Positions 6,691 through 32,737 of a DNA stretch of 54,370 nucleotides are shown here, piece by piece (positions within the stretch are counted from its first letter, which is position 1; each line of letters opens with the position of its first letter). The DNA comes from Planctomycetota bacterium (GTDB taxonomy: Bacteria > Planctomycetota > Brocadiia > Brocadiales > Bathyanammoxibiaceae). Both the position numbers and the translations under genes were made by a program. The stretch spans positions 6,322 through 60,691 of the forward strand of contig JAHFOV010000005.1 of assembly GCA_023261505.1 (NCBI GenBank), in the 5' to 3' direction. Under the pieces are notes generated by a model. It did no database searches. It saw only the letters and a list, made by a program, of their open reading frames with translations, and had not been told where the DNA came from.

Positions 6691-8145
6691 CTAAGGAGTT
6701 GTATCCCCATCTGAAGGTCTTGATACTGGTCGGAGGAGGGGAAATAGTATTACTTCTCGAATAGATGTGCAATTAGTCAGTATCATTATAAGCCTGTCAA
6801 TTCCAATGCCTAGTCCCCCCGCGGGGGGCATTCCGTACTTGAGCGCCAGCAAAAAGTCTTCATCCACCTTGCCGGCGGTCATTTCGGTGCCAGCCTGTTC
6901 CATGAACCTCTGCCGTTGTTCCAGAGGGGCGTTGAGTTCGGTGTAGGAATTTGCCAGTTCCATGCCTGCAATGTACAGCTCAAAACGCTGGGCCAATTCT
7001 GGCTTGCCTTCGCACAGCCTGGTCAAGGGGCAGAGTGAAGCAGGGTAGTCCAGGACAAAAGTAGGCTCCCAAAGGTTAGTCTCCACTAATTCTTCAAAGA
7101 TTTCATTAGCAATTTTGTCCCGGTTGCCCCCATGTGTGCTTAGCCCAAGCTCCTCAGCCTTCTTCATAAGACTTTTAAGATCGTAAAAATCTACTTCTGC
7201 ATAGTTTTTGAGGAGTTCAACAAAGGTAATCCTCCTCCAAGGAGGTGTCATATCAACAGTCCTCTCTCCATAGGGAATCCGGTAAGCACCATGGAGTTCC
7301 ATAACCAGGGAGGTAATCATACTCTCTGTTAATTCCATCATGTCATTGTAATCGGCATAGGCCTGGTAGGCTTCAAGCATAGTAAACTCTGGGTTATGAC
7401 GGGTGGAAATGCCCTCATTGCGAAAGTTGCGATTTATCTCGTAGACCCTCTCCATTCCTCCCACCAGGAGCCTCTTAAGATAGAGTTCTGGGGCTATGCG
7501 GAGATAAAGGTCTATGTCAAGGGTGTTATGGTGGGTGATGAAGGGTCTTGCCACTGCTCCACCTGGGATAGGCTGCATCATAGGGGTCTCCACTTCTACG
7601 TAACCCCTTTCGTCAAAAAACCTTCTGGTGCCCCTGATAATTTTTACCCTGTTCAGAGAGGTCTTCATTGTCTCAGGGTTAGAGATAAGGTCAAGGTATC
7701 GCTGTCGGTGTCGCAGTTCAACATCCTTCAGGCCGTGCCATTTTTCTGGTGGAGGCAAGAGCGCCTTGGAGAGGAGAGTAAAATTCTCCACTAGGATAGT
7801 TATTTCGCCTGTTCTAGTTTTGAAGACAGTTCCTTCGGCGCCAATGATGTCTCCAATGTCAAGGAGTTTGAATAGCTCAAATTTACCTTCGCCAATTAGG
7901 TCTTTTTTTATATATAGTTGAATCTTACCAGTCCAATCCTTTATATCCAGAAAGGAGGCCTTACCGTGGGGCCTGAGGGTAGCTATTCTACCCGCGGCCC
8001 GTACATGCTTGCCCTCCTCGTTATTGTAATTTTCTACGATGGATTTCAGGCTTTCCTGCCCATTGAACCTCTTACCATAAGGCTCTACCCCCATGGCTTT
8101 GAGCTTTTCTAACTTCTCTAGACGATCTTGTTCAAACTTCTCCAT
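6691..8145 (-). CDS. lysS: Lysine--tRNA ligase (class II)
   Basis: RQRYLDL, LRIAPELYLKRL, FRNEG..RHNPEF, YGMPPAGGLGIGIDRL. ATG 8145 preferred over the ORF start at 8166. Confidence 0.97.
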   Translation of the reverse strand: MEKFEQDRLEKLEKLKAMGVEPYGKRFNGQESLKSIVENYNNEEGKHVRAAGRIATLRPHGKASFLDIKDWTGKIQLYIKKDLIGEGKFELFKLLDIGDIIGAEGTVFKTRTGEITILVENFTLLSKALLPPPEKWHGLKDVELRHRQRYLDLISNPETMKTSLNRVKIIRGTRRFFDERGYVEVETPMMQPIPGGAVARPFITHHNTLDIDLYLRIAPELYLKRLLVGGMERVYEINRNFRNEGISTRHNPEFTMLEAYQAYADYNDMMELTESMITSLVMELHGAYRIPYGERTVDMTPPWRRITFVELLKNYAEVDFYDLKSLMKKAEELGLSTHGGNRDKIANEIFEELVETNLWEPTFVLDYPASLCPLTRLCEGKPELAQRFELYIAGMELANSYTELNAPLEQRQRFMEQAGTEMTAGKVDEDFLLALKYGMPPAGGLGIGIDRLIMILTNCTSIREVILFPLLRPVSRPSDGDTTP

Positions 8146-8487
8146 TTTCACTTTTCCCAATAACACTTCCTCGCCATTCTATCAAGAAAAGTAGGACTGT
8201 CAAGATTGTTAGCCTGAACTTTGAACAAGAGTTACGACATTAAGTAACTTTTAAATGGCCGGTGGCGATACATCCTTCTTAGATATGCCTTTCTTAAGAT
8301 TATTTTAAGATGTATAATAATTATTTTGTCTGCTTCTACCTCTATGGGCCTGCTTATTTTTTCGAGTTTTACAGCCTATCCTGCATTACTGCAATCTACC
8401 CAGCTACTGCCTTTCAAGACCTTCTTTTTAAGTTTTTTCTTGTAACTGGGTATAATATAGAAAGTAAAATATGAAAAAGGATTAAGC

Positions 8488-8844
8488 ATGCCTGAGAAAA
8501 GTTTTTCCAAGGAAGAGAGGTTGAGGAAGAGAAGGGAATTTGACAGGGTCTTCCAAGGAGGGAAGGTCTTTAAAGGGGCAATCTTCAATGCTTATGCACT
8601 CGGCAATTCTTTGGGACATCCCCGTATCGGAATAGTCGTGGGAAGGAAGTTTGGTGGTGCGGTACAGCGTAACCGCATCAAGCGCCTCCTCCGGGAAGCT
8701 TACAGGTTGAACAAAAACCTCATAGGGGCGGGCCTCGATATAGTGCTTCTCCCCAGGCCAGGCCATGAGGCCAATTTTAAGTTGTTAGAAAAAGAATTCA
8801 AGAATTTAATAGAGAGGATAAAGAGAAGAGACAGTAGACAGTAG
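8488..8844 (+). CDS. rnpA: RNase P protein component
   Basis: RLRKRREF, RIGIVVGRKFGGAVQRNRIKRLLREAYR (RNR motif). Confidence 0.93.
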   Translation: MPEKSFSKEERLRKRREFDRVFQGGKVFKGAIFNAYALGNSLGHPRIGIVVGRKFGGAVQRNRIKRLLREAYRLNKNLIGAGLDIVLLPRPGHEANFKLLEKEFKNLIERIKRRDSRQ

Positions 8845-8939
8845 ACAGCAAGCAGGGAAAAGGTTTTTTTTAACTGTCGGCTGCCTACTTCCTGCTGTGA
8901 TTTTTTTAACTGCCTACTGTCTACTTCCTACTGTCTACT
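8828..8939. repeat. 7-nt-period inverted tandem array (AGACAGT/ACTGTCT)
   Basis: About 3 AGACAGT units, then ACTGYCT-like units; the same family occurs at 9148-9234, 10165-10225 and 27733-27782. Confidence 0.8.
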
Positions 8940-9155
8940 ATGATTAAGGGACTCATAATCATCCTCATAAGGAGGATGTATCAGCGTTTCATAGGACCGC
9001 TGTTGCCCCCTTCTTGCCGCTACTCTCCAAGCTGCTCGGAATATATGGCAGAAGCAATCGAAAAAAAGGGGGTACTGATTGGCAGCATAAAGGGACTTTG
9101 GCGTATCTTGAGGTGCCATCCACTAGGGGGTTCAGGGCACGACCCTGTAGACTGA
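8940..9155 (+). CDS. yidD: Membrane protein insertion efficiency factor
   Basis: [10 protein letters not shown]...[16 protein letters not shown]; follows rnpA. Confidence 0.93.
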
Positions 9156-9236
9156 GTAGAAAGTAGACAGTAGCCAGGGACAAAGTAGAAAATTAATTTT
9201 TCCCTTTATACTGTCTACTGACTACTGTCTACTAAC

Positions 9237-9554
9237 TTACACTTGGTCAGGGGGTGCACTAGAAGGCAATTCTTTATAGAAGCCATTTTCTTTAAGCTTC
9301 TTGTAAATTTCCAGGCCCTTTTCTGAGGGTTTTACCTCGTAGAAGACGGAGCTGTACTCATAATTCTTTTGTCCTTCTATAAGGGAAGAACTAAGTAAGG
9401 CCTCCACATCGTAGAAAGGGCCCCCCAGCCTACCAAAATTACTATACTTCTGGGTAGCCAGGTAATACTCGCATATACTCCCCAGAGTTCTGGCGATGCG
9501 CCTTATAGTCTCAGAATCCTTTATAGCATTCAAAAATTCTTCGTAGGCCTTCAT
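9237..9554 (-). CDS. Hypothetical protein
   Basis: 105-aa ATG ORF filling the gap; no motif recognised. Confidence 0.55.
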   Translation of the reverse strand: MKAYEEFLNAIKDSETIRRIARTLGSICEYYLATQKYSNFGRLGGPFYDVEALLSSSLIEGQKNYEYSSVFYEVKPSEKGLEIYKKLKENGFYKELPSSAPPDQV

Positions 9555-9736
9555 TTTTGCCCAAAAACTTTTAATTTTTGATAAAAACTATACCCTTTTA
9601 CCTATAAATTCAATAAATTTCAATGGCAAAACAGTCGAAATCTATAGAATATGCGGAATCAGTCAGCAGGGGTAAACACTGTACTAATAAGAATGGCTCA
9701 TCGATAGACGTTTTATAAGTTAAGAGAAAATAACGA

Positions 9737-9765
9737 TTGACAATTTTTAGCACGCGGAGTAAAAT
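9737..9765 (+). promoter_or_regulatory. Sigma70-type promoter of the acpS-radical SAM-KS cluster
   Basis: TTGACA-N17-TAAAAT, about 35 bp upstream of acpS. Confidence 0.65.
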
Positions 9766-9800
9766 TTTTCAACAAATTACTAAGGAAGGTCTTTAGATAG

Positions 9801-10181
9801 GTGTACATAGGAATAGACTTAGTGGAAGTGAAAAGGATAGAAAACCTTTTCTCTCGTTATGAATCTTTTTTGGGACATATTTACACCACTAAAGAAGTAG
9901 AATATTGCCAGAACAAAAAGAACAAGTTCCAGCACTTTGCGGCTAGATTTGCGACAAAAGAGGCTGTTATTAAGGCTTTAGGAGGGGGGGCGGGTTGGAA
10001 GGACATAGAACTTCTTAACGATCCCACTGGTCGCCCTTATCTACAGCTCTATGGAAGGGCCAGGGAGCGCGCGGAGGCGAAGGGGATTGGTAACTACGAA
10101 GTTTCTGTAACGCATACTAAGGATTACGCTGTTGCTCAGGTGCTCCTCATACCCAGAACACTTTCAGTAGGCAGTAAGTAG
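9801..10181 (+). CDS. acpS: Holo-ACP synthase
   Basis: IGIDLVE, AARFATKEAVIKA, GRP, VSVTH motifs. Confidence 0.95.
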   Translation: MYIGIDLVEVKRIENLFSRYESFLGHIYTTKEVEYCQNKKNKFQHFAARFATKEAVIKALGGGAGWKDIELLNDPTGRPYLQLYGRARERAEAKGIGNYEVSVTHTKDYAVAQVLLIPRTLSVGSK

Positions 10182-10243
10182 TAAGCAGTAGGCACTGCCT
10201 ACTCCTTAGTCCCTAGTGCCTAGTAATTTTATTGGGAGATAAG

Positions 10244-11719
10244 ATGAAAAAAAGAAAGCTCATCCTCATAAACCCTCATCCCATAGGGAATGTGGGAGAA
10301 GAAAATGTCTCGGTGCTTAACCAGATGCCTGTAAATCTGGGGTACCTGATAACCCTTACCCCCGAACACTGGGAGGTGAATGTTATAGATGAGACCATAG
10401 AGCTTGCATTAGATGAAAATAATCAGCTAACCTTCCAGGGAGCAGACCTTGTTGGGATAACATCTGTGAGTTATCAAGCACCAAGGGCCTACGCTATTGC
10501 TAGTGCCTGCAAAAAGAGAGGCATCCCCGTAGTGATGGGTGGTGTTCATGCTACTACGTATCCCGGCGAAGTTTCACAACATGTAGACACCGTAGTAACA
10601 AAGGAGGCTATATCAGTATGGGGAAAGCTACTCTCAGACTTTGAGCAGGGGAAGCTTCAAAAACTTTATGATGGCGGGTTAACACCGCTGGAGAACCTTA
10701 ATGGTCTTTACCCTGGCAGGGATTTTTTGAAGAAAAAATATAAGTACCGCTATTCTGGTATCATAACTACTGCGGGTTGCCCTTTTAATTGTGAATTCTG
10801 TTCAGTGCCACAATTCCAGGGGAGGAAATATAGGGAAAGACCAATTGAAGATGTTTTGAAAGAGTTTGAGGCCATAAAGGGACAATATAGAGGTCTTGTC
10901 CTAACAGACGAGAACTTTTACGGTCACAGCAAGAAGTCTAACGATAGGGTTAGATACCTTTTTAAGGACATGGTCGAAAGAGGGATATATCAAAACTGGT
11001 TCGGCTTCACCTCTCTTAATATCTATCAGGATGATGAAACTTTGGACTACATGGTAAGAAGCGGTTGTGTGGGGGTGCTCATTGGCATAGAGTCATTAAA
11101 TAAAGATGCCCTTTATTCTATGAACAAAAATGTAAACTTGAGAATAACTATTGAAAGATACTATGAGGCGGTTAAAAACATCCGCAAGCACGGCATCGCC
11201 GTGTGGGGAACCTTTATCTTCGGTAACGACACCGACACCCCTGAGACCTTTGATGAGGTAGCAGACTTTATCTTGAACTCCCAGATTGATATTATGACCT
11301 GCGGTATTCTTTGCCCATTCATCAATACACCCCTTTACAAGCGGCTCGAGGTTGAAAACAGGCTGTTCCGTAACCACTTTCCCGAAGATTGGATTTATTA
11401 CACCTCCCACCACTTAGTCTATATCCTGAAGAAACTCTCTCTTCAAGAATTGATTGATGGGATGGAGAGACTTTATAACAAGCTCTACTCTACAGAGGCC
11501 ATAAGGAAACGTTTCCAGAACTCAAGAGACGTGCTCCAAAACAATAACTCCGCACTATTTGCCTTGAAGGTAAATTGGGATTGGCGAAACGTCTTTAAAC
11601 ATATGTTAGAAAATCTTAAAACTCTTCAGGCCTCAGGAGTGTATGAAGCAGCCCTGAACCGTATTGGTAGAAAAGAAAGGTACGATGAACCATCCAGATT
11701 AGTGGCTACCAAAATATAA
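10244..11719 (+). CDS. Cobalamin-binding radical SAM protein
   Basis: B12-binding-like N-terminus (DLVGIT...VVMGGVHAT), GCPFNCEFC (CxxxCxxC), IGIES. ATG 10244 follows a GGGAG RBS. Confidence 0.9.
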   Translation: MKKRKLILINPHPIGNVGEENVSVLNQMPVNLGYLITLTPEHWEVNVIDETIELALDENNQLTFQGADLVGITSVSYQAPRAYAIASACKKRGIPVVMGGVHATTYPGEVSQHVDTVVTKEAISVWGKLLSDFEQGKLQKLYDGGLTPLENLNGLYPGRDFLKKKYKYRYSGIITTAGCPFNCEFCSVPQFQGRKYRERPIEDVLKEFEAIKGQYRGLVLTDENFYGHSKKSNDRVRYLFKDMVERGIYQNWFGFTSLNIYQDDETLDYMVRSGCVGVLIGIESLNKDALYSMNKNVNLRITIERYYEAVKNIRKHGIAVWGTFIFGNDTDTPETFDEVADFILNSQIDIMTCGILCPFINTPLYKRLEVENRLFRNHFPEDWIYYTSHHLVYILKKLSLQELIDGMERLYNKLYSTEAIRKRFQNSRDVLQNNNSALFALKVNWDWRNVFKHMLENLKTLQASGVYEAALNRIGRKERYDEPSRLVATKI

Positions 11720-11730
11720 AAGGAATTAGT

Positions 11731-12939
11731 ATGCAAAGAGTGGTGGTAACAGGTATTGGTCTAGTAACAGCCCTCGGTGCCAACGTTAAAGAATCATGGG
11801 AGACAATGTTGGCTGGCAAAGACGGTATAGCTGAGATAACCTCCTTTGATACCTCCATGTACAAGGTTCACAAGGCCTGTGAGGTAAGAAAATTAAATTC
11901 CAACGGACACCTAATCACCAAAAAGCCCTTTACGGTGTATGATTGTCTACTGGCGGCGGCCGGGGAGGCCATGGAAGATAGCGGCCTAAATATTTATAAA
12001 CTTTTAAACAGGGAAAGGGTTGGAGTTTCAGTTGGTACCCTTGCCGGGGAACTCTCCCTCTTTGAGCAAAGACTGAGAAATCACCACGAGAACAAGGCAG
12101 ATGGATTTGACATAGACGTGGCCATGAACTATCCACCAATGACCCTTTCCACTCAACTGGCTGAGGCATTTCAATTGGAAGGGCCTAATATAATCCTCAT
12201 AAATGCCTGCTCCTCAGGTAACCACGCCATTTGCTGGGCCTTTGATGCCATACGGGAGGGCAAGGTAGATGCCATGGTGGTAGGGGGCAGTGATGTTGTA
12301 CCTCAGACAGAATTTACTCACTTCCACAACCTGAAGGCCCTTGCTCCTGAAAAATGTCAGCCTTTTGATAAGAATCGACAGGGATTGGTAGTGGGGGCAG
12401 GGGCTGGTGTTCTCATACTGGAATCTCTTGAGATGGCCTCAAAAAGAGAGGCCAAAACATACGCTGAAATAAAGGGATACGGACTCAGTAGTGATGGCTA
12501 TCATATGACAGCTCCCCACCCTAGCGGAGAAGGGGCAGCGAGGGCCATGGAGTTATCCCTACTCTCAGCAAGATTATCCTATAAAGACGTTGATTACATA
12601 AGTGCGCACGGTACCGGTACACCCTTGAACGATAAAATGGAAACCCTCGCCCTTCAGACTGTCTTTCAGGAAAGGGCCCAGCACCTCCCTTGTAGTTCCG
12701 TGAAGTCTATGATAGGCCATACTATGGGGGCAGCTAGCGCTATTGAATCCATAGTCTGCTGTCTGGTTATAAAAGAAGGGGTTATTCCGCCTACTATTAA
12801 CTTTGAGACAAAAGACCCGGAGTGTAACATAGATTGTGTCCCAAATCAGGCCAGGGAATATAAGGCAAATTACACCCTAAATAACTCCTTCGCCTTCGGC
12901 GGGAACAATGCTAGTATTATCTTTGGTAGAACCCAATAG
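11731..12939 (+). CDS. fabF: Beta-ketoacyl-ACP synthase (active KS, FabF-like)
   Basis: Catalytic triad intact: NACSSG, AHGTGT, GHTMGA; C-terminal NSFAFGGNN. Confidence 0.88.
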   Translation: MQRVVVTGIGLVTALGANVKESWETMLAGKDGIAEITSFDTSMYKVHKACEVRKLNSNGHLITKKPFTVYDCLLAAAGEAMEDSGLNIYKLLNRERVGVSVGTLAGELSLFEQRLRNHHENKADGFDIDVAMNYPPMTLSTQLAEAFQLEGPNIILINACSSGNHAICWAFDAIREGKVDAMVVGGSDVVPQTEFTHFHNLKALAPEKCQPFDKNRQGLVVGAGAGVLILESLEMASKREAKTYAEIKGYGLSSDGYHMTAPHPSGEGAARAMELSLLSARLSYKDVDYISAHGTGTPLNDKMETLALQTVFQERAQHLPCSSVKSMIGHTMGAASAIESIVCCLVIKEGVIPPTINFETKDPECNIDCVPNQAREYKANYTLNNSFAFGGNNASIIFGRTQ

Positions 12940-12966
12940 CCCGACAAAAAGAGGGGGTATCTGGAA

Positions 12967-14241
12967 ATGGCCAACCTAAAGAAGGTAGAAAGACAAGCAA
13001 GCACTAAAAAAAAGGTAGTAATAACCGGCATCGGTATTATCTCACCACTAGGTATTGGCCATAAAGCATTCTGGACAAATCTTGTCGAAGGTCGTTCGGG
13101 GGTTTCTCCAATAACTTCCATTGACGTGTCTTCCTACCCATGCAAGCTTGCCGCAGAGGTCAGGGACTTTAATGCAGGAGATTATCTGGGAGATAAAGGT
13201 CTCAAGTACTTAACAAAGGGCACCAAGTTTCTTGCCTCTGCCATTAAACTGGCACTTGAGGATGCTCAGCTACAAAACAATGGTAATTTCCCAGAATATG
13301 CGGGGGTTATAATAGGCTCTGCATTGGGTAATTACTCTCAAACCACAGACTATACTTACAACATATTTAAACTTGGTCCTGACAAACTACTCCCCATGGC
13401 TAGTTACGATGTGGCCCTTAACTCTTCCATCAATTTTGCCTCAGTATTCTTCAAGCTAAAGGGTCCCTCTAGAACCATCTCCTCTGGTTTCACTTCCAGC
13501 ATAGATGCTATAGGCAATGCCTTCAACCTTATTAGAAATAATAGCGATAACCTCCTTATAACCGGCGGTGTGGAGCAAATATCCCTGGATAGCTATCTCC
13601 TATTCCTCCTCCAGGGTCTCCTGTCTGGCTCTCACAACTCAGGGCCTGAAAAGAGCAGTCCCTTCGACAAGCATAGAAATGGTTTCGTCTTAGGTGAAGG
13701 AAGCTATGTCCTTATCCTGGAGGAACTAGACTCAGCCCTCAGGCGTGGAGCAAAAATATATGCTGAGGTAATGGGTTACGGCACAACGTACGTAGGAAGT
13801 AATAGATTCGACTTGGAAGAAAAAACAAGGAGGGTACAAAGGGCCATGGAGCTGGCCCTGGAGGATGGTGCTCTTTCCAGCGACTCTCTTGACCTCATCT
13901 ACGCCAATGGAAATTCCAGTAAACTCCTAGATATGATAGAGGCTCGAGCAATAAAGAATTGTTTGGGAAACACCTTAGGAAATGTATTAATTGCCTCTGC
14001 AAAGCCTCTTGCCGGTGAGTGCTACGGTGCATCTGGTGCTATGCAAGTAGCGTCTTGCGCATTAAGCATGGAAAATTCGCTAGTCCCTCCTATCGCCAAC
14101 CTGCAAGTCCCTGACCCTGAATGCAACCTTAATCTGGTTACAAAGAAGTCGCTTCAAAGAGACGTACATTTTGCTATGGTAAACTCTATAGACCCTGCTG
14201 GGAGTTGTTCTTGTTTGATCCTGGGAAAGGGTCAACCTTAG
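12967..14241 (+). CDS. Catalytically inactive ketosynthase paralogue (chain-length-factor-like)
   Basis: KS fold (VVITGIG, SPFD.HRNGFVLGEG), but the triad positions read SGFTSS, ANGNSS and GECYGA. Confidence 0.85.
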   Translation: MANLKKVERQASTKKKVVITGIGIISPLGIGHKAFWTNLVEGRSGVSPITSIDVSSYPCKLAAEVRDFNAGDYLGDKGLKYLTKGTKFLASAIKLALEDAQLQNNGNFPEYAGVIIGSALGNYSQTTDYTYNIFKLGPDKLLPMASYDVALNSSINFASVFFKLKGPSRTISSGFTSSIDAIGNAFNLIRNNSDNLLITGGVEQISLDSYLLFLLQGLLSGSHNSGPEKSSPFDKHRNGFVLGEGSYVLILEELDSALRRGAKIYAEVMGYGTTYVGSNRFDLEEKTRRVQRAMELALEDGALSSDSLDLIYANGNSSKLLDMIEARAIKNCLGNTLGNVLIASAKPLAGECYGASGAMQVASCALSMENSLVPPIANLQVPDPECNLNLVTKKSLQRDVHFAMVNSIDPAGSCSCLILGKGQP

Positions 14242-14410
14242 ACAATGCCCGAATCGCAACTGCAGCCTTCCTGTAAGTGTTCTTTTAACAACCCATCCTA
14301 TACAGGCAGATGTCGCAGGCGCCCTGAAATGGAAATATCGGAACGCATCCCCTATAATTAATGCAATAGTGGCGTGGCATGTTGTTTCTATTAATTAAAG
14401 TGAAATAACT

Positions 14411-16441
14411 ATGATAAGTCTTTTTGACAAGGCAAATATTGGACCTCTGGAGCTTAAAAACCGGTTGATTATGACGGCCATGGATGTGGGTTTTTCTACA
14501 GATGGCTTTATAAACGACCGCTTCATAGACTTTTACGCTGAGAGGGCAAGGGGTGGAGTGAGCCTAATAATAATAGGAGGTTGCTACCCTCACGAGAGTG
14601 GAAAGCACTGGAAGAGTATACTTGGCCTGGATGAAGACCTCTATATCCCCAGCCTTAAAAGGTTTACCGAAGCCATGCACCAACTCGGGGCTAAAACCGC
14701 CACCCAACTCCTTCATGGAGGTCGTTACGCCTCTAGCCTCTTCACAAAAAGGCAACCTGTATCCGCCTCCAGCGTGCCAAGCCGCCTGGCCAAGGATATT
14801 CCTAGACCCCTTACCATTCCCGAAATAAAAGAGATAATTAACAGTTACGCCAGGGCCGCTTTCAGGGCTAGGGAGGCGGGTTTTGATGCCGTGGAAATCC
14901 ATGGTGGCATGGGGTACCTAATAAACCAATTCTTATCACCTATAACCAATCAGAGAAAAGATGAGTACGGAGGGGATCTGCAGGGCAGACTCAGATTCGC
15001 CAGAGAGGTCGTGCAAGCTACCAGGGAGCTCGTGGAAAAGGATTTTCCTATTATCTTTAGGCTAGCGGGGGATGAGCTAATGATGGGGGGAAACAGGATA
15101 AAAGAGAACATCGAGATTGCCAGAGAATTAGCCAGAGTAGGGGTAGACGCCTTTCATGTCTCTCCAGGATGGCACGAGAGCAAGACCCCTATAATGGTTA
15201 TGGCCATTCCGAGAATGGCCTACACCTTCCTAGCGGCCTCTATCAAAGAGAATGTTAACCTGCCTGTTATAGCAGGTGTAAGGATAAATGACCTCTCGGT
15301 GGCTGAAGAATTCCTTAGAGATGGCCAAGCAGACTTTATAGCCATAGGCCGCCCCCTCATTGCAGACCCTGAACTTCCCAAAAAATATAGAGAAGGAACA
15401 TGGGAAGATATCAGGACGTGCATTGCGTGTAACCAGGGATGCTTTGATGAACTCTTGAATATGAAACCCATCTCCTGTCTTTACAACCCACAGGTGGGCC
15501 ATGAAAGAGAGTATATTATCAAGGAAGCACCTGTAAAGAAGAGGGTAATGATTGTAGGTGGCGGTCCTGGAGGGATGGAGGCTGCCAGAGTGGCTGCCTT
15601 GAGAGGACACCAGGTTGCCCTTTATGAAAAGGACTGCTACCTTGGGGGACAGCTACATTACGCCTACAAGCCTCCTGGTCGGGGAGAGTTCCAACATGTT
15701 ATCAGTTACCTTGAAAGACAAATACTAAAATTAGGGGTAAGTGTGAATCTTGGGATAAAGGTTGATACAGAGCTTATTAAAAAGGAACAACCACAGGTAG
15801 TTATTCTCTCCACAGGCTCCCTACCAATTATTCCCCCCATACTAGGGGTAAATGGCAAAAACGTGGTACTTGCCAGGGATGTCCTGGAGAGGAGGGTGCC
15901 GGTTGGAAATCCTGTGGCTATTATAGGGGGTGGGTCAGTGGGATGCGAAGTGGCCCTTTATGTGGCTAAACTGGGAAGCATGAGCCCAGAAGTAGCCCTC
16001 TTCCTCTTAAAGCACCAGATAATAGACCTTGCTACTGCCCTCCAGAGGACCCTCAGAGGGCACCGCAAGGTCACTGTACTTGAAATGAAGAAAAGACTGG
16101 GAAGCGGATTTGGACTTTCTACCCGTTGGGTCATCCTTCAGGAGATGGAAGAAACAGGTATAGAGACCCTAACCGGGGTAAAGGTAAAAGAGATAAAAGA
16201 ATCCGCCTCAGGCGGACCTGGGGGGATTCTATACGAGAAAGAAGGTAGAGGTGGGAGTGACCCTGCCACCTTTTTGCCTGCTGAAACAATCATCCTGGCA
16301 ACGGGCTACATGCCAAACAACTCCCTCTATCAGCAAATGGACAGCCTGGTGCCGGAGATGTATGCCATAGGGGATTGTGTGAAGGTCAGGACGGCTATGG
16401 AGGCCATCCACGAGGGTTTTAAAATCTCACTGAACATATAA
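14411..16441 (+). CDS. fadH: 2,4-dienoyl-CoA reductase-like NADH:flavin oxidoreductase (FadH family)
   Basis: OYE barrel (EIHGGMGYLINQFLSP.TN.R.D.YGG), CIACNQGC, two Rossmann motifs. Confidence 0.8.
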   Translation: MISLFDKANIGPLELKNRLIMTAMDVGFSTDGFINDRFIDFYAERARGGVSLIIIGGCYPHESGKHWKSILGLDEDLYIPSLKRFTEAMHQLGAKTATQLLHGGRYASSLFTKRQPVSASSVPSRLAKDIPRPLTIPEIKEIINSYARAAFRAREAGFDAVEIHGGMGYLINQFLSPITNQRKDEYGGDLQGRLRFAREVVQATRELVEKDFPIIFRLAGDELMMGGNRIKENIEIARELARVGVDAFHVSPGWHESKTPIMVMAIPRMAYTFLAASIKENVNLPVIAGVRINDLSVAEEFLRDGQADFIAIGRPLIADPELPKKYREGTWEDIRTCIACNQGCFDELLNMKPISCLYNPQVGHEREYIIKEAPVKKRVMIVGGGPGGMEAARVAALRGHQVALYEKDCYLGGQLHYAYKPPGRGEFQHVISYLERQILKLGVSVNLGIKVDTELIKKEQPQVVILSTGSLPIIPPILGVNGKNVVLARDVLERRVPVGNPVAIIGGGSVGCEVALYVAKLGSMSPEVALFLLKHQIIDLATALQRTLRGHRKVTVLEMKKRLGSGFGLSTRWVILQEMEETGIETLTGVKVKEIKESASGGPGGILYEKEGRGGSDPATFLPAETIILATGYMPNNSLYQQMDSLVPEMYAIGDCVKVRTAMEAIHEGFKISLNI

Positions 16442-16446
16442 AAAAG

Positions 16447-16568
16447 TGACTTTAGACTTTGGACTATAGACATTAGACTTTACACTGCGGACTATAGAAC
16501 GTAGACTTTTCTGCTTAAAGTGGAAGAATACCCTGTTTTTAGTCTAAAGTCCAAAGTCTAAAGTCTAA
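16447..16568. repeat. 7-nt-period inverted tandem array (AGACTTT/AAAGTCT)
   Basis: GACTTTA GACTTTG GACTATA GACATTA GACTTT ... AGTCTAA AGTCCAA AGTCTAA AGTCTA, between fadH and fabG. Confidence 0.82.
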
Positions 16569-16588
16569 TATAGAAATGGAGATTATCC

Positions 16589-17332
16589 ATGTCCTTAAAA
16601 GGTAAGGTGGCAATAGTAACAGGTGGAACCAGGGGTATAGGGAGGGCTATTGTACAGGAACTGGCTAAGAACGGTGTGGACGTGGCCTTCAACTTCCTCA
16701 AGAACTTAGAAAAGGCAAAAGAGGTAGAAAACGAGCTAAATAATCTTGGAGTAAAGGCTTTGCCTGTACAATGCAACGTGGCTGACTTCAATCAGTCCAA
16801 AGAAATGGCAACCACCGCCCTAAAGCACTTTGGGAAGATAGATATTCTTGTAAACAACGCAGGCATTACCAGGGATAATCTTATGATGAGGATGAGTGAG
16901 CAGGAATGGAAGGAGGTAATAGACACTAACCTGAATGGAGCATTCAATATTACAAGGGCTGTGGTATTCCCCATGATGAAGCAAAAGAGTGGTTCTATTA
17001 TAAATATAACCTCCGTAAGTGGGATTATAGGCATGATGGGGCAGGCCAACTATGCCGCCTCTAAGGCAGGGCTTATAGGATTCACAAAGTCTCTCGCCAA
17101 GGAACTAGCCAGATTCAATATTTCAGTAAATGCCGTAGCACCAGGATTCATAGACACTGAGATGACCCAGATGCTGGACAAGAAATATATAGAAGAGGCT
17201 CTTAAGCTTATTCCCATGGGACGAATTGGCAAGCCAGAGGAGATAGGTAAGGCTGTTATATTCTTGGTTTCCGATGCCTCGAGCTATATCACGGGCCAAG
17301 TCCTGAGTGTAGATGGCGGCCTGGCCATGTAA
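16589..17332 (+). CDS. fabG: 3-oxoacyl-ACP reductase
   Basis: TGGTRGIG, NNAGITRD, NYAASKAG, APGFIDT. Confidence 0.93.
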   Translation: MSLKGKVAIVTGGTRGIGRAIVQELAKNGVDVAFNFLKNLEKAKEVENELNNLGVKALPVQCNVADFNQSKEMATTALKHFGKIDILVNNAGITRDNLMMRMSEQEWKEVIDTNLNGAFNITRAVVFPMMKQKSGSIINITSVSGIIGMMGQANYAASKAGLIGFTKSLAKELARFNISVNAVAPGFIDTEMTQMLDKKYIEEALKLIPMGRIGKPEEIGKAVIFLVSDASSYITGQVLSVDGGLAM

Positions 17333-17466
17333 AAAAAATTGCAAATTACAAATTTCAAATTTTGATTTTTGATACGAATTTTTCAACGGCTAGACTGGAG
17401 GGCAGATAATAAAGAATACAAATTACAAATTTGTAATCTATAATTTGTAATCTGCAATATGAATTT

Positions 17467-17820
17467 ATGCTCTTTCTTGTAAAGGTTGAAATAGAAAAAC
17501 TTCCTCAAATACCTACTAGAAACTTCTTTGAACTACTCGTCAAGGAATGGGAGTATTACGAGCGGATGAAGAAGAGAGGGAAGGTGCTGGCCGGGGGTAA
17601 ACTGGCGGGTAGACGCGGCGCTGCCGCTATTTTCGATGCAGACTCAAGTGAGGAGATAGAGGCGATTGTAACTAAACTTCCCCTTTTCCCATTCTTTACC
17701 AAGATAGAAATAACCCCGTTAGTCCCTCAGGAGAAGGCCCTTTTAGACGCCAAAAGGATGTACCAGTTGGTAAAAGATTCCAACCTGATGCTCTTCCCCA
17801 CCGGCACCGAGCCTAAATAA
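17467..17820 (+). CDS. Muconolactone delta-isomerase / YCII-like small protein
   Basis: MLFLVK...IFDADS.EE....LPLFPF..IEITPL pattern. Confidence 0.65.
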   Translation: MLFLVKVEIEKLPQIPTRNFFELLVKEWEYYERMKKRGKVLAGGKLAGRRGAAAIFDADSSEEIEAIVTKLPLFPFFTKIEITPLVPQEKALLDAKRMYQLVKDSNLMLFPTGTEPK

Positions 17821-17824
17821 GTAG

Positions 17825-17891
17825 ACAGAATACAGAATTCAGAATATAGAATTTTTAATTCTGACTACTGAATTCTGACTACTGAATTCTG
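17825..17891. repeat. 7-nt-period inverted tandem array (CAGAATW/AATTCTG)
   Basis: CAGAATA CAGAATT CAGAATA TAGAATT ... AATTCTG ACTACTG AATTCTG ACTACTG AATTCTG, between convergent genes. Confidence 0.82.
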
Positions 17892-17899
17892 TGTTTTTG

Positions 17900-19006
17900 C
17901 TAGGATTTCCTTAGGAGGGACTCGTAAATCTTAAACTCTTCATCCGCCTCCTTGGTCATTCCAAGGAGTTCATAGACCAGCCCCAGGCCCTTCCTTGCCT
18001 CAGGGCTAGTGGGATCTAAACGAACTGCTTCTTTAAAAGAGGCCATAGCCTCTTCCAACATACCGGCGTTGTTGTAAAGGTGGGCAAGACCTGTATGGGC
18101 CCTGGCACAGTCAGGGTCGGCCCCAACCGCCGCTTGATAGTGCTTGAGGGCTTCCTCTGCATTTCCCGAGGAAGAATACAAGTCTCCTAAAAGGGCGTTA
18201 GCCTCTGCCAGCCGTGGCTCTATCTCCAGGGCCTTCAATTCCTCCTGAATGGCCTCTTTAGCCATACCCTTCTTTGCCAACACCATCCCCAACCTGGCGT
18301 GGGCCCGTGCATCTTTAGGGTTTAGCTCCAGTAGCGTCTCACATTGTCTTGTAGCCTTCTCAAGGGCATTCTGCGTAACATAGGCCTCTATCAAAAGATA
18401 ATGGGCTTCTACTAGAGAAGGGTTGATTTCTACGGCCTTTTGCAGTTCGCTTATAGCTCTATGAAATATCCTCCTTTTAAGAAACAGTCTTCCCAGGTTA
18501 CAGTGAGGCTCAGCCAGTTCAGAATTCAGCCTTATACTTCGGATATACTCGGCCACTGCCTCCTCAAGCTCTCCCTTCTTTTCCAAAGCGTAGCCCAGGT
18601 TATTGTTCAATTCTGCTGTATCGGGGCTTATCGCCACAGCGTTTTGATGTTCTCTCACCGCCTCTTCCACGAGACCTTTTTCCAGGTACACATTTCCCAG
18701 GTTAGAATGGGCTTCTGGGAGATTATTTTCTAGTTCTAATGCCTTTCTGAAATTGGTGATGGCCTCATCTAGCCGCCCCATCTTCTTGTAAAGAAGTCCC
18801 ATGTAAACGTATGGTCTTGGAGAGTTGGGCTCTCTTTCCAGAGCCCTCTGGCAGGCCTGCAACCCTTCCTCCAAAGCACCCTTCTGGTAACACTCCTGGG
18901 CCAGGCGGTAATATCCCTCTAATTCCTCTGTGTCCGCCAAAAGAGGGCTATCAGAGGTTAATATAAGCGAAAGAAAAAAGAGTACGGGACAGATTAAATG
19001 TTTCAT
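17900..19006 (-). CDS. Secreted tetratricopeptide repeat protein
   Basis: Tandem TPR motifs (AHSNLGNVY, NNLGYAL, AHARLG); signal peptide from ATG 19006 (MKHLIC...). Confidence 0.88.
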   Translation of the reverse strand: MKHLICPVLFFLSLILTSDSPLLADTEELEGYYRLAQECYQKGALEEGLQACQRALEREPNSPRPYVYMGLLYKKMGRLDEAITNFRKALELENNLPEAHSNLGNVYLEKGLVEEAVREHQNAVAISPDTAELNNNLGYALEKKGELEEAVAEYIRSIRLNSELAEPHCNLGRLFLKRRIFHRAISELQKAVEINPSLVEAHYLLIEAYVTQNALEKATRQCETLLELNPKDARAHARLGMVLAKKGMAKEAIQEELKALEIEPRLAEANALLGDLYSSSGNAEEALKHYQAAVGADPDCARAHTGLAHLYNNAGMLEEAMASFKEAVRLDPTSPEARKGLGLVYELLGMTKEADEEFKIYESLLRKS

Positions 19007-31447: not shown

Positions 31448-32737
31448 ATGTTTATCAGGATGGTAAAGACAACGACGGGGTCACAGAAAAAGACCCACTG
31501 CTATCTCAGGGTAGTGGAGAGTTATCGGTCTAACGGCAAGGTAAAGCAGAGGGTCTTGTGGAACATGGGTAAGTTGGAGAGGGTACGCCCTGGCCTTAAT
31601 GGTTTGTTAAAGTCTCTAATTAGATTCTCCGGGGAACAATTCTTAAACGTAAGAGAGATAAAAGATAGACGAGTAAGTGAATATGGAAATATCCTCCTAC
31701 TAAAATATCTATGGGAAGGCTCGGGATTTAGAAAAATCCTGGAGTCCAACTTAGGGAAGGATGCAGACTGTATAATGGCTATGGTTTTTTATAGGTTATG
31801 CCAGCCAGCCACATACGCCTGCGGTGCTACCGCCCTGCTAAGCTGGTTAAAGAGGATTAATCTGCCTGAAGCGGAGAGGCTGGCTAGGTTAGGCCAGGGG
31901 AGGTTGAGGAAGAGACTATTAAACGGCATAAACACTTTGGGCAGGCTGGAATGGTCAGAAAGGCAAAAATCCGTGTCAGGTCATACTTTGAGAAAATTAC
32001 CCGCAGCAAAAAGAAGCTTCATTATAGAGATAGGTCCTTTATCTTATAGAGGAAAAAGGTATAGAAACAATTACCTGGCAATCCTTCCACTGGGCAGTAA
32101 TAACTTTACACGGTTCAGGGTTCATACCAGGAAAGAATTCGTGGCAATGCTCCAGAAATTAAAGAGTACCAAGGGGATTCTCATAGTAAGGTACTCCACA
32201 CTAGGAAGGAAAGGAGTAGCCTTTCTGGACAAGGAATCCGTTCCTTATCTGGCCTTTTTTAAAAAGCTTCAGCCAACTCGCCGTAGGCCCAGGAGGAGGC
32301 ACCTTACCATTGGGTACGGCAATCAAAAAGTTCAGCTAAGGACAAATATTGCAAAGAGTACCAGCCTCTACCAGGCAAAAAGGGCCTTTAAAGGCCTCCT
32401 GGAAGCAGAGTCCGCCCTTGGTCGGCCAGCTTTACCCCCTTTTATGCCACCAGGGAAGGCTTATTTGAAGGGTTACATACTAGTGCTCATGCTGGCGTAT
32501 CTAATAGAAAAGCTCCTACAGAAAGGACTTGCCAAGCATGGCATTCGATTTCAACCGAAAGAAGCCCTGGATACGCTAAAAGAGGTCAGGATAGTAAGTA
32601 ATCTCTTAGCAGGTAGAAGGTGGGATTATCTAACTGGCATGACGCGTGAGCGGTGTACCTTGCTAAAAATCTTCGGAATAAAGAGGCCCTCTCTCAATCT
32701 CAAAGCCCAAATGACAAATGCAACTTTTGGAGTTTGA
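31448..32737 (+). CDS. IS1634-family transposase-derived protein with no recognisable DDE core
   Basis: N-terminus MFIR...YLRVVESYR.NGKVKQRVL.N.G and C-terminus KGYILVLMLAYLIEKLL match IS1634 transposase ends; acidic catalytic motifs not recognisable. Confidence 0.65.
   Translation: MFIRMVKTTTGSQKKTHCYLRVVESYRSNGKVKQRVLWNMGKLERVRPGLNGLLKSLIRFSGEQFLNVREIKDRRVSEYGNILLLKYLWEGSGFRKILESNLGKDADCIMAMVFYRLCQPATYACGATALLSWLKRINLPEAERLARLGQGRLRKRLLNGINTLGRLEWSERQKSVSGHTLRKLPAAKRSFIIEIGPLSYRGKRYRNNYLAILPLGSNNFTRFRVHTRKEFVAMLQKLKSTKGILIVRYSTLGRKGVAFLDKESVPYLAFFKKLQPTRRRPRRRHLTIGYGNQKVQLRTNIAKSTSLYQAKRAFKGLLEAESALGRPALPPFMPPGKAYLKGYILVLMLAYLIEKLLQKGLAKHGIRFQPKEALDTLKEVRIVSNLLAGRRWDYLTGMTRERCTLLKIFGIKRPSLNLKAQMTNATFGV

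Follow-up and report, generated by a model that had tools for sequence, protein, structure and literature searches.

Is a seven-gene lipid locus that combines a B12-type radical SAM enzyme (rSAM) with an active ketosynthase (KS) and an inactive ketosynthase paralogue (KS') part of the machinery that builds ladderanes, or does it serve other acyl chains? The genes lie in a 54,370-nucleotide stretch of contig JAHFOV010000005.1 (assembly GCA_023261505.1, Planctomycetota bacterium), hereafter the window. A first-pass annotation, made from the letters alone, had read the genes as a possible locus for a specialised lipid of ladderane type, tailored by radical chemistry, and this proposal is supported in that host, synteny and orthology all fit it. 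Three caveats apply: the locus has been published as a candidate before, so it is no discovery; judged by sequence its link to ladderanes is that of a candidate only; and genomes without a detected hydrazine synthase carry orthologous modules.

Host and layout of the locus

The host is a groundwater anammox bacterium of the small-genome family Bathyanammoxibiaceae, and its genome is 96.5% complete. Its assignment as an anammox bacterium follows from the presence of hydrazine synthase alpha (HzsA; NF052339, 1518.6 bits against a cut-off of 800), so the objection that the host might be unrelated to anammox lineages does not apply. An octahaem HDH-like gene, scoring 379 and thus under its cut-off of 900, adjoins the HzsA gene.

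All seven genes are on the + strand and span 9801-17820 (Table 1), in the places and the common orientation first given for them. The catalytic triad of KS is intact and KS' has F/N/E at the aligned columns, again as first read. The near-consensus promoter proposed ahead of acpS stands as a consensus match: it agrees at 11 of 12 positions and ranks first among the 21 matches in 8800-18100, where shuffled sequence gave a mean of 13.9 (sd 4.5) and where Planctomycetota promoters fall outside the consensus used for the scan. The gaps between the first four genes are 50, 11 and 27 bp. The next three are 169, 147 and 134 bp, and the FadH-like, fabG and muconolactone-isomerase-like (MIase-like) genes each have a weaker promoter-like match ahead or nearby; given gaps of this length, co-transcription of these three genes is putative only. 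Contigs from two RNA libraries of one study overlap rSAM, KS and FadH, and as overlap alone is no proof of transcription we take them as a weak hint of expression.

Table 1. Features of the locus, in window coordinates
Feature	Position	Strand	Remarks
Sigma-70-like promoter match	9737..9765	+	TTGACA, 17 nt spacer, TAAAAT; 36 bp before acpS
acpS, holo-ACP synthase, kuste2802 orthologue	9801..10181	+	PF01648, TIGR00516
Radical SAM with putative B12-binding domain, kuste2803 orthologue	10232..11719	+	Radical_SAM, DUF4070, Cys motif
Active ketosynthase KS, kuste2804 orthologue	11731..12939	+	C160/H293/H330
Inactive ketosynthase KS', kuste2805 orthologue	12967..14241	+	F/N/E at catalytic columns
FadH-type Fe-S flavoenzyme	14411..16441	+	Oxidored_FMN (OYE domain) and Pyr_redox_2 (FAD/NAD(P) domain)
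fabG, 3-oxoacyl-ACP reductase	16589..17332	+	TIGR01830
Muconolactone-isomerase-fold protein	17467..17820	+	PF02426

A domain search of the window agreed with the first-pass annotation in finding no ACP or FabZ, and it found no CrtI-like gene either. The host genome as a whole holds two PP-binding matches, on contigs C15 and C128, and FabZ homologues on C128 and C143. The canonical acpP-fabF pair is on C15, and the host's own Cluster I, consisting of genes for an ACP, FabZ, KS, KS', a CrtI-like flavoenzyme and a B12 radical SAM enzyme, is on C128.

A known core and its extension

By sequence, the first four genes correspond as orthologues to Kuenenia kuste2802-2805. That core is already known: Rattray et al. 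2009 (PMC2649909) and Javidpour et al. 2016 (PMC4790861) present kuste2802-2805 as a ladderane candidate, the latter under the label 'operons 3 + 4, a complete cluster'. The 2016 paper reports that kuste2802-2805, when expressed in E. coli, yielded insoluble protein and that new fatty acids did not appear. Both loci have the order acpS, B12 radical SAM, KS, inactive KS on one strand. The window KS' matches the Phe/Asn/Asn/Lys/Glu tabulated for Kuste2805 (Phe163/Asn298/Asn300/Lys328/Glu333, printed FNNCKE, in Table 2 of PMC2649909) and reads FNNSKE over the six columns of that table, the difference being Ser at position 302 where Kuenenia (including Kuenenia hertensis), Brocadia and Jettenia have Cys (FNNCKE). 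The pattern F-N-N-x-K-E was found in 12/12 KS' orthologues examined.

Unlike kuste2802-2805, the window locus continues into FadH, fabG and the MIase-like gene. Kuenenia hertensis likewise has the four core genes (48-71% identity), whereas its fabG and MIase-like genes are on another contig and its FadH is 71 kb off. Orthologues of all seven genes are present across anammox genera. They stand together in Bathyanammoxibiaceae, Scalinduaceae and Jettenia, but in Brocadia and Kuenenia they are dispersed; the last three genes, still joined to the core here, are kept elsewhere in those two genera. We counted gene order in 73 public loci, using as denominators the loci with enough flank. The rSAM gene lies upstream of KS' in 54/55 loci and acpS in 49/51, KS is within 700 bp of KS' in 55/63, and FadH directly follows KS' in 34/59. 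The acpS-rSAM-KS-KS' core is thus kept across anammox genera, which answers the call for a synteny check in favour of the original proposal.

The ketosynthase pair

KS is sister to the active KS of Cluster I and KS' is sister to the inactive KS' of Cluster I; the two pairs go back to a pairwise duplication. In careful IQ-TREE analyses the active-KS clade (21 rows, 100/100) splits into a Cluster I type and a window type, meaning orthologous to this locus, with support of 100/99, and the inactive-KS clade (21 rows, 100/100) splits in the same way with 87/99 and 86/95. The 12-row window-type clades, which stand apart from those of Cluster I and FabF, had support of 100 for both proteins in a first tree and of 97/97 (KS) and 92/94 (KS') in the careful analysis. 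A placement of the two proteins with a characterised non-ladderane pathway, which had been named as a way to overturn the proposal, was not found; they are orthologues of kuste2804 and kuste2805. KS' is a single-copy gene in 84/132 Brocadiia genomes and occurs in 0/40 outside the anammox order. In the reduced Bathyanammoxibiaceae genomes there are only five KS genes, namely FabF and the two pairs.

Each of the two pairs comes with a B12 radical SAM paralogue. Cluster I differs in having an ACP, FabZ and CrtI-like gene, all absent from the window, and in the residue that replaces the catalytic Cys of KS', which is Phe in the window, where the copies of Cluster I have Val, Thr or Glu. Cluster I corresponds to kuste3603-3608 (FabZ paper, PMC10139942), and its pair, amxFabF2/amxFabFmut, is reported to form a KS/CLF-like heterodimer (preprint 10.64898/2026.05.19.726425). 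Because the window pair is paralogous to it, a heterodimer is expected here as well, and the sequence suggests that KS' is likely a chain-length-factor-like partner of KS. The best solved structures point the same way: KS scores highest with 9s5h_B (424 bits; next 310) and KS' with 9s5h_C (273.8 bits), two different chains of one entry, which we infer to be the amxFabF heterodimer of Cluster I.

An active KS also adjoins an inactive paralogue in type II polyketide systems (actinorhodin, 1tqy; ishigamide, 6kxd), and KS' matches these structures (1tqy_A 185.8, 1tqy_B 156.2, 6kxd_A 176.6 bits). The window proteins are nevertheless closer to FabF, with 9s5h and FabF structures scoring higher. Classical CLFs have Gln at the Cys position, which the window KS' lacks.

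AcpS and the radical SAM enzyme

The acpS product scores 70.1 bits with PF01648 and 86.3 with TIGR00516 (cut-off 59.8). It is the sole PF01648 match of the 96.5% complete host genome, in which no further phosphopantetheinyl transferase was found.

No other protein of the locus is as conserved as the rSAM enzyme, with 70-75% identity to the Scalindua, Brocadia and Kuenenia copies. It has Radical_SAM (82 bits) and DUF4070 (27.1, cut-off 22) domains and a visible C-x3-C-x2-C motif; the B12-binding domain PF02310 scores 28.1, under the Pfam cut-off of 32.1, compared with 46.9 for the paralogue on contig C99. The suggested phylogeny of this enzyme yielded a window-type clade in two trees (100/100 and 100/97), and the window and Cluster I enzymes are paralogues with 52% identity. 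Membership of TIGR04072 (rSAM_ladder_B12) was not found, as the window protein scores 71.1 bits and the best protein of the host genome 112.7, where the cut-off is 360. P- and C-methyltransferases are among the top NCBIfam matches, and the sequence does not tell a cyclase from a methylase.

FadH, FabG and the isomerase-like protein

The FadH-like protein aligns over its full length with E. coli 2,4-dienoyl-CoA reductase (1ps9_A residues 4-670 with residues 3-675; 413.6 bits, E 1.6e-122). It shares the full-length architecture and the four-Cys motif of FadH (1ps9) and 2-naphthoyl-CoA reductase (6qkg), and the motif, C-x2-C-x3-C-x11-C, is one we take to be a form of the FadH-type Fe-S Cys motif. 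It is, however, only moderately identical to them and falls below every NCBIfam equivalog cut-off; a dienoyl- or enoyl-thioester reductase, with ACP or CoA as carrier, is likely. Orthologues with 56-61% identity were found in 5/5 anammox genomes tested, and among five non-anammox Brocadiia four had OYE-domain matches of 34-37% only and the fifth had none.

FabG scores 335.3 with TIGR01830 (equivalog cut-off 297.75) and is the only FabG above that cut-off in the host genome, the next best scoring 241.3. Its gene adjoins the MIase-like gene in 4/4 and 27/27 loci examined.

The MIase-like protein belongs to PF02426 (56 bits, cut-off 26.7), and with 42.9 against 130.6 for TIGR03221 it does not qualify as a muconolactone Delta-isomerase equivalog. 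Its AlphaFold2 model (pLDDT 90.9) has a ferredoxin-like fold and resembles muconolactone isomerase and 5-chloromuconolactone isomerase ClcF with a target TM of 0.78-0.85; for 1mli, 3znu and 3zo7 the target TM is 0.81-0.85 and the rmsd 1.5-1.8 Å over 87 columns. As in ClcF, for which an E27A mutant entry exists, residue 27 is Glu, and it is nearly invariant in the family. The window protein differs in its identity to these enzymes (20-28%), in an extra C-terminal helix and tail, and in its setting among lipid genes rather than in aromatic catabolism. The family is narrow: it was found in 83/132 Brocadiia genomes and 0/40 outside the anammox order, with 60-70% identity between Bathyanammoxibiaceae and Scalindua or Brocadia. 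The predicted and likely activity is that of a double-bond (1,3-proton-shift) isomerase.

Carriers without hydrazine synthase

Three genomes in which hydrazine synthase alpha was searched for and not found, their completeness not being given, carry related genes: the 'delta proteobacterium' MFD00822.bin.1.250 (L277/L288), Planctomycetota PNC 17 (L204) and Bin8 (L205). All three have Cluster I-type genes and fabG in one operon, and two also hold a window-type module; Bin8 has one module only. The order, on one strand, is ACP-FabZ-KS-KS'-PDH-rSAM-rSAM-rSAM-KS-KS'-FabG in L277/L288 and ACP-FabZ-KS-KS'-PDH-rSAM-rSAM-KS-KS'-FabG in L204. These joined clusters carry orthologues of the KS and KS' of both anammox pairs, have rSAM of the window type and of the Cluster I type, and show a FabG directly after the second, window-type KS'; the L277 rSAM beside the second KS is sister to the window-type rSAM clade (96/93). 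They differ from the anammox loci in having everything in one cluster on one strand, with no acpS and no FadH. A MIase-like gene lies 5-6 kb off on the other strand in PNC 17 and Bin8, and the delta proteobacterium genome has a weak match only, on another contig. The presence of these modules in genomes lacking a detected HzsA indicates that the pathway is not confined to known ladderane producers, and it argues against a ladderane-exclusive reading.

More distantly, 63 of 72 non-anammox loci have a KS'-like gene in a related KS/KS' pair, and 31 of these 63 also have a CrtI-like gene. KS/KS' with a CrtI-like gene and without a close rSAM is common in Acidobacteriota, Omnitrophota and others, which fits a more general unsaturated-lipid chemistry.

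Interpretation

We favour, with a probability of roughly 0.6, the reading that the locus is the kuste2802-2805 copy and supplies, after Cluster I as the first part, the second of two condensing modules in a specialised, ACP-dependent fatty-acid or polyketide-like pathway. The joined gene orders of L277/L288 and L204 speak for one pathway with Cluster I, and the conservation of rSAM and the MIase-like protein speaks for selective constraint. Points against this reading are the wider gaps and promoter-like matches of the last three genes, their separation from the core in Brocadia and Kuenenia, the low TIGR04072 score and the outcome of the E. coli expression. A link of the locus to ladderanes is plausible, at slightly less than even odds. 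In the pathway that we infer, AcpS would activate a carrier protein; as the window lacks one, the ACP of Cluster I is the probable partner. KS and KS' would form a KS/chain-length-factor-type heterodimer that extends an ACP-bound chain with malonyl-ACP, KS' shaping the substrate tunnel; FabG would reduce the 3-keto group and the FabZ of Cluster I would carry out the dehydration. The FadH-type and MIase-fold enzymes may adjust the number and position of thioester double bonds, and the B12 radical SAM enzyme would functionalise a C-H position of the chain by radical chemistry, giving a C-C bond or ring, or a methyl group.

A bolder version, which we regard as distinctly unlikely, is that Cluster I and the seven-gene locus together are the whole core machinery for ladderane chains and that the carriers without HzsA make ladderane-like or radical-cyclised lipids. 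Such a set may comprise one ACP, one FabZ, two KS/CLF-type heterodimers, a CrtI-like flavoenzyme and three paralogous B12 radical SAM enzymes, along with FabG, the FadH-type reductase and the MIase-fold isomerase. If this were true, the last two would be overlooked steps that place double bonds for radical ring closure, and anammox bacteria would not be the only makers of ladderane-like or radical-cyclised lipids.

Non-anammox carriers weaken the exclusivity of a ladderane role, and a somewhat unlikely alternative is that the locus makes a specialised non-ladderane lipid, with a polyunsaturated or otherwise tailored acyl chain, as it presumably does in the non-anammox carriers, and that ladderanes arise via other genes or further anammox-only steps. 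The joined clusters with orthologous KS, KS', rSAM and FabG in HzsA-less genomes are in keeping with this, as are the many related non-anammox pairs, about half of them with a CrtI-like gene, and the report of Rattray et al. (PMC2649909) that polyunsaturated hydrocarbons, and no ladderanes, were found in Desulfotalea, which has syntenic clusters. Against it, within Brocadiia the anammox order alone has KS' and the MIase-like gene, and with only five KS genes the reduced Bathyanammoxibiaceae genomes offer few other candidates if ladderanes are made. We consider it very unlikely that the locus is mainly housekeeping, with acpS and fabG serving FAS II, KS/KS' carrying out ordinary elongation and rSAM acting as a C-methyltransferase for methyl-branched fatty acids. 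Such fatty acids are typical of anammox bacteria, methyltransferases make up the majority of characterised B12 radical SAM enzymes and occur among the top NCBIfam matches here, and the genome has no AcpS, and no FabG over the cut-off, besides those of the window. Yet the canonical acpP-fabF pair is already present on C15, ordinary or methyl-branched chains need no inactive KS partner, FadH-type reductase or isomerase, and the module's ancestral cluster had its own ACP, FabZ and CrtI-like enzyme.

It is more improbable still that FadH, fabG and the MIase-like gene, with a crotonase in Scalinduaceae, form an auxiliary beta-oxidation-type set for unsaturated acyl-CoAs that is unrelated to the KS module and adjoins it by history alone. 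Degradation of unsaturated fatty acids does use these enzyme classes (FadH, a crotonase-family enzyme, an SDR and a double-bond isomerase), a crotonase sits between FadH and FabG in the Scalinduaceae locus L041, and Brocadia and Kuenenia keep the genes apart from the core, while here they are set off by gaps of 134-169 bp. The two-part ACP-dependent pathway accommodates better that FabG passes the 3-oxoacyl-ACP reductase equivalog model and comes straight after KS' in the non-anammox joined clusters; moreover, the host genome has no orthologue of the Scalindua crotonase (best match 32%), and FadH directly follows KS' in more than half of the loci scored.

Identity and content of the locus

The core of the locus is already known as a published ladderane candidate. 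In the accessible part of Rattray et al. (2009; Table 2, PMC2649909), Kuste2802 is identified as acpS, Kuste2803 is assigned to the B12 radical SAM enzymes, and the residues listed for Kuste2805 are Phe163, Asn298, Asn300, Cys302, Lys328 and Glu333. At the same six columns the window's inactive ketosynthase paralogue (KS') reads FNNSKE, differing from Kuste2805 in carrying Ser instead of Cys302 and agreeing with it at the other five positions. FNNCKE is the reading in the KS' proteins of Brocadia pituitae, Jettenia ecosi and Kuenenia hertensis, and F-N-N-x-K-E was present in 12 of the 12 KS' orthologues examined. Judged by sequence, the window's acpS, B12-type radical SAM enzyme (rSAM), active ketosynthase (KS) and KS' genes are the kuste2802-2805 locus, and the first-pass annotation was correct in reading a ladderane-candidate lipid locus here. 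As far as the available text of Javidpour et al. (2016, PMC4790861) goes, kuste2802-2805 was termed 'a complete cluster' and when expressed in E. coli it gave protein that was largely insoluble, without any new fatty acid; a 2022 review citing Rattray (PMC9204698, available in part) mentions Kuste2803 as a potential cyclobutane-forming catalyst.

The remaining first-pass observations also held up. ORF calls and domain searches recovered the seven co-oriented ORFs, including acpS, rSAM, an FadH-like gene, fabG and a gene for a muconolactone-isomerase-fold protein (MIase-like), and an alignment of 59 ketosynthases placed Cys160, His293 and His330 in KS and Phe, Asn and Glu at the catalytic-triad columns of KS'. 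The near-consensus promoter, TTGACA-17-TAAAAT, is there as claimed; it is a match to consensus only, the top one of 21 in 9.3 kb, with 13.9 +/- 4.5 matches in shuffled-sequence controls. Gaps of 50, 11 and 27 bp separate the packed first four genes, and gaps of 169, 147 and 134 bp precede the last three. In profile and homology searches of the genome contigs neither ACP nor FabZ was found within the window, again as described; the window copies are the genome's sole AcpS and its sole FabG above the equivalog cut-off.

With dnaA, accB (biotin carboxyl carrier protein), accC (biotin carboxylase) and lpxB 16-24 kb downstream within the window, the locus is near the replication origin region and other lipid genes. 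The locus neighbourhood is old yet rearranged. The genes lysS and rnpA stand upstream of the locus in the window; in six Scalindua-type loci (L048, L053, L055, L073, L076 and L088) rnpA and lysS are inverted and lie 3-4 kb downstream of the MIase-like gene.

Coordinates and search results for the locus, its surroundings and related loci
Feature	Location	Description	Search result
Seven-gene locus	window 9801-17820, + strand	acpS to MIase-like	ORF calls and domain searches
acpS		holo-ACP synthase, first of seven genes	domain search
rSAM		radical SAM core, DUF4070, weak B12-binding domain	core 82 bits; B12-binding 28.1 bits vs cut-off 32.1
KS and KS'		two FabF-like ketosynthases	domain search
FadH-like		FadH/OYE and pyridine-nucleotide-disulphide-oxidoreductase protein	domain search
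fabG			TIGR01830 335.3 vs cut-off 297.75
MIase-like		117 residues	PF02426 56 vs 26.7
lysS	window 6691-8166
rnpA	window 8488-8844
Promoter-like match	window 9737-9765
Two co-oriented ORFs	window 31448-33115	429 and 118 residues, directly ahead of lpxB	no Pfam match at E <= 1e-5
lpxB	window 33119-34261
dnaA	window 36815-38200
accB + accC	window 39567-41431
HzsA, octahaem protein	C79:193-4594 (L103)	HzsA 817 aa, 2 CxxCH, start 193 bp from contig end; then octahaem protein, 8 CxxCH
Cluster I and five further genes	C128:9642-23405 (L104)	same strand
Two ORFs, PNC 17	L204:17167-19451	393 and 337 residues, right after FabG	no Pfam match at E <= 1e-4
KS'-like and KS-like genes	L277:3643-8344	ahead of the joined cluster	34% and 40% to Cluster I pair

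Host genome

The assembly that holds the window, as contig C64, measures 2.5 Mb and is 96.5% complete. A host unrelated to anammox bacteria, named in the first-pass annotation as a case against the ladderane link, does not apply: contig C79 encodes the hydrazine synthase alpha subunit (HzsA; NF052339, 1518.6 bits vs a cut-off of 800), adjoined by an octahaem protein that scores 379 bits with the hydrazine dehydrogenase (HDH) model, below its cut-off of 900. The genes hzsB and hzsC would fall past the contig end. HzsA was over the cut-off in 60 of the 132 genomes of the class, all 60 within five families of one order, among them the window's own family (f1, comprising 14 genomes between 1.4 and 2.5 Mb in size). 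The nearest public KS' copies (75-81% identity) come from MAGs labelled Planctomycetes RIFCSPHIGHO2_12_FULL_52_36, Candidatus Brocadiales and Brocadiia.

For two samples of the one study that holds the DNA, which may include the source sample, contigs of the RNA libraries cover rSAM, KS and FadH at 95-100% identity; such cover does not show transcription, strand or level. No RNA-library contig fell on acpS, KS', fabG or the MIase-like gene, and this lack of cover is no evidence either way.

Conservation among anammox bacteria

Synteny across Brocadiia, a check that the first-pass annotation had proposed, revealed a gene order kept across anammox genera. A pattern search of a species-level genome collection, run with an alignment of KS' orthologues, yielded 73 loci, of which only those with enough flank were counted (see table). 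Nearly all were labelled Scalindua, Brocadia, Jettenia, Kuenenia, Loosdrechtia, Anammoxibacter, Wunengus, Subterrananammoxibius or Brocadiales, and 72 of the 73 contained a KS' match at an identity of at least 45%. The window's family, Scalinduaceae and Jettenia ecosi show the complete seven-gene order. In one Scalinduaceae locus (L041) a crotonase additionally separates FadH from fabG, and a PAP2/NUDIX gene follows the isomerase. The fabG and MIase-like genes were adjacent in 27 of 27 loci counted. They also stayed side by side in all four genomes examined in which the pair lies away from the core (Brocadia pituitae, Brocadia DTUAMX2, Kuenenia hertensis and Loosdrechtia). A full-length FadH orthologue (56-61% identity) was found in each of five anammox genomes tested, beside KS' in two of them.

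Gene order around KS' in public loci, and identity of window proteins to Scalindua, Brocadia or Kuenenia copies
Gene	Position	Loci	Identity
acpS	upstream of KS'	49/51
rSAM	upstream of KS'	54/55	70-75%
KS	<=700 bp upstream of KS'	55/63	55-62%
KS'			47-54%
FadH	immediately 3' of KS'	34/59	55-64%
FadH	anywhere downstream of KS', flank >=8.5 kb	29/42
fabG	anywhere downstream of KS', flank >=8.5 kb	23/42	52-56%
MIase-like	anywhere downstream of KS', flank >=8.5 kb	23/42	59-70%

Across the class, a KS' orthologue (E <= 1e-110, one per genome) occurred in 84 of 132 genomes and the MIase-like gene in 83; besides the window's own genome the anammox order accounts for 83 and 82 of 91, respectively, and neither gene was found in the 40 genomes of six other families. 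Five non-anammox genomes of the class gave 29-38% matches to rSAM; for FadH, four of them had only 34-37% OYE-domain matches and the fifth had none. Queried with the MIase-like protein, a word-based search of 5.8 billion proteins returned just 74 clusters, and the named ones were all Brocadiales or Planctomycetota. One MAG labelled 'uncultured Thermodesulfobacteriota' (L087, L173 and L253; contigs CAXMPV0100000xx) holds a window-type locus and a Cluster I at Scalindua-like identities (52-83%); it is probably a mis-binned or mislabelled anammox genome and no real non-anammox carrier.

Relationship to Cluster I

The window's genome encodes five ketosynthases: FabF beside acpP on contig C15, the window pair and a pair on contig C128. 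The order on C128 is ACP, FabZ, KS, KS', CrtI-like flavoenzyme and B12 radical SAM, a composition that matches 'Cluster I' (kuste3603-3608) as described in the accessible text of Granatino et al. (2026; preprint 10.64898/2026.05.19.726425), where the Cluster I pair is reported as a KS/chain-length-factor-like heterodimer with malonyl-ACP decarboxylation and a short-chain preference.

The phylogeny of both KS proteins, also proposed at first pass, places the window-type halves sister to the Cluster I halves. In a maximum-likelihood tree of 59 rows (omitting six long-branch rows of a first tree), a single 21-row clade (100/100) unites the active KS of both loci and divides into Cluster I and window-type halves (100/99), and the inactive KS' form a second 21-row clade (100/100) with the same halves (87/99 and 86/95). 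Since both clades split alike, KS and KS' were duplicated as a pair. The top solved structures for KS and KS', 9s5h_B (424 bits, next 310) and 9s5h_C (273.8, next 250.6), are two different chains of one entry, which we take to be the preprint's Cluster I heterodimer, the structure table itself not stating so.

The window rSAM shares 52% identity with the Cluster I enzyme and 55% with a third, stand-alone paralogue on contig C99, whose context beside Mla and menaquinone genes is uninformative. Five same-strand genes follow Cluster I on C128, encoding a GltD-like Fe-S flavoprotein, a Rieske protein, a b-type cytochrome membrane protein, a UshA-like protein and a second HDH-like multihaem protein (137.5 bits). 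The C128 KS' has Glu instead of Val at the Cys position (ENNSKD).

Candidate enzymes and proposed function

NCBIfam matches to the window rSAM all fall far below their cut-offs (PhpK 95.5, BchE 82.2, HpnJ 82.1 and TIGR04072 71.1 bits), and membership of TIGR04072 ('rSAM_ladder_B12', cut-off 360) was rejected; solved-structure matches are all distant (AprD4 at 51 bits, 9ccb and a Trp methyltransferase). No close TIGR04072 match was found in the 14 genomes of f1 (best at most 146 bits; the window's genome reaches 112.7). One such match each, at 309-417 bits, is present in Brocadia pituitae, Kuenenia hertensis, a Scalinduaceae MAG, Jettenia ecosi and Subterrananammoxibius, and the kuste3335-3352-type cluster seems to have been lost from the small f1 genomes.

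The FadH-like protein matches E. coli 2,4-dienoyl-CoA reductase (1ps9_A) over its full length at 413.6 bits, the next match being 2-naphthoyl-CoA reductase, and carries a C-x2-C-x3-C-x11-C motif, presumably a four-Cys Fe-S motif. For the MIase-like protein, the fold, predicted at high confidence (pLDDT 90.9), is a beta-alpha-beta-beta-alpha-beta core with a C-terminal helix; its top Foldseek match is the 5-chloromuconolactone isomerase ClcF (E 7e-9, rmsd 1.5-1.8 Å over 87 columns), and further matches include muconolactone isomerase and TftG. Glu27, nearly invariant across the family, shares its number with the mutated position of the 'ClcF E27A' entry and, judged by that numbering, may be its equivalent. 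Neither protein was found discussed as an anammox lipid gene in the accessible portions of the literature searched, and we regard the FadH-type reductase and the MIase-fold protein as two conserved, undiscussed candidates for the ladderane pathway.

The most likely scenario is that KS and KS' act as a heterodimer that extends an ACP-bound chain, with keto-reduction by FabG and dehydration by the Cluster I FabZ; the FadH-type and MIase-fold enzymes would set double-bond number and position, and rSAM would carry out radical chemistry on the chain, either cyclising or methylating it. This scenario fits the iterative scheme discussed by Dietl et al. (PMC10139942, available in part); that proposal needs a keto-reductase, and Cluster I lacks one. 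Ladderane biosynthesis is a long-standing open problem in bacteria without genetic access, which the window copy narrows and does not solve. What is added here is the extended conserved set of genes travelling together across anammox genera, the fabG-isomerase pair and the minimal f1 ketosynthase complement; that f1 genomes keep just FabF and two KS/KS' pairs, without a close TIGR04072-type rSAM, suggests a minimal set for reconstitution.

Joined clusters in genomes without detected hydrazine synthase

More distant MIase-like proteins lead to two Planctomycetota MAGs without stated completeness, PNC 17 (L204) and Bin8 (L205), in which HzsA was not found at the cut-off of 800 (best 52 bits and no match, respectively). 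PNC 17 carries, on one strand, ACP, FabZ, KS, KS', CrtI-like, rSAM, rSAM, KS, KS' and FabG, with a MIase-like gene about 6 kb off on the opposite strand; Bin8 has ACP-FabZ-KS-KS'-CrtI-like-rSAM-FabG and a MIase-like gene 5 kb off. In the KS tree the first PNC 17 pair is sister to the Cluster I clades and the second to the window-type clades, its KS' on a long branch. The second PNC 17 rSAM is unsupported as a window-type orthologue, the two PNC 17 copies being 74% identical to each other and grouping together and with Bin8.

Widening the search, with relatives of the second PNC 17 KS as seeds, gave 79 further loci, 72 of them outside the anammox lineage. A KS'-like gene stood beside KS in 63 of the 72 (34 from Acidobacteriota), 31 of these 63 also having a CrtI-like gene. 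An rSAM at an identity of at least 50% was present in a single one (L277), from a 6.9-Mb MAG labelled 'delta proteobacterium' without an HzsA match. Its gene order joins both modules (see table). In the rSAM tree, a further check proposed at first pass, the window-type clade was recovered with the third tandem L277 copy as sister (96/93); the first copy groups with the Cluster I type (98/98) and the second, weakly, with the C99 type (80/63).

Gene order of the joined cluster in L277/L288 and best matches in the window's genome
Gene	Product	Best match	Identity
1	ACP	Cluster I ACP	46%
2	FabZ	Cluster I FabZ	54%
3	KS	Cluster I KS	58%
4	KS'	Cluster I KS'	49%
5	CrtI-like	Cluster I PDH	48%
6	rSAM	Cluster I rSAM	59%
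7	rSAM	C99 paralogue	57%
8	rSAM	window rSAM	56%
9	KS	window KS	54%
10	KS'	window KS'	41%
11	FabG	window FabG	55%
12	distant rSAM	window rSAM	30%

From the order of the joined clusters, taken with the trees, Cluster I and the window module emerge as the halves of a single older cluster to which FabG also belongs. An anammox-only FadH-fabG-MIase set is partly rejected, given FabG in non-anammox clusters and MIase-like genes near two Planctomycetota ones. MIase-like, FadH and acpS genes were each absent from all 72 non-anammox loci of the wider search and FadH and acpS were not found in L204 or L205; FadH itself, and the linkage of acpS to the cluster, were seen only in the anammox lineage. The occurrence of both modules in one operon, in bacteria where hydrazine synthase was not found, is likewise added here; it points to other organisms in which to seek the product and calls into question whether the cluster is unique to ladderane producers. 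Searching the L277 genome with the window KS' gave 11 KS-family matches, and further KS'-like and KS-like genes lie ahead of its joined cluster.
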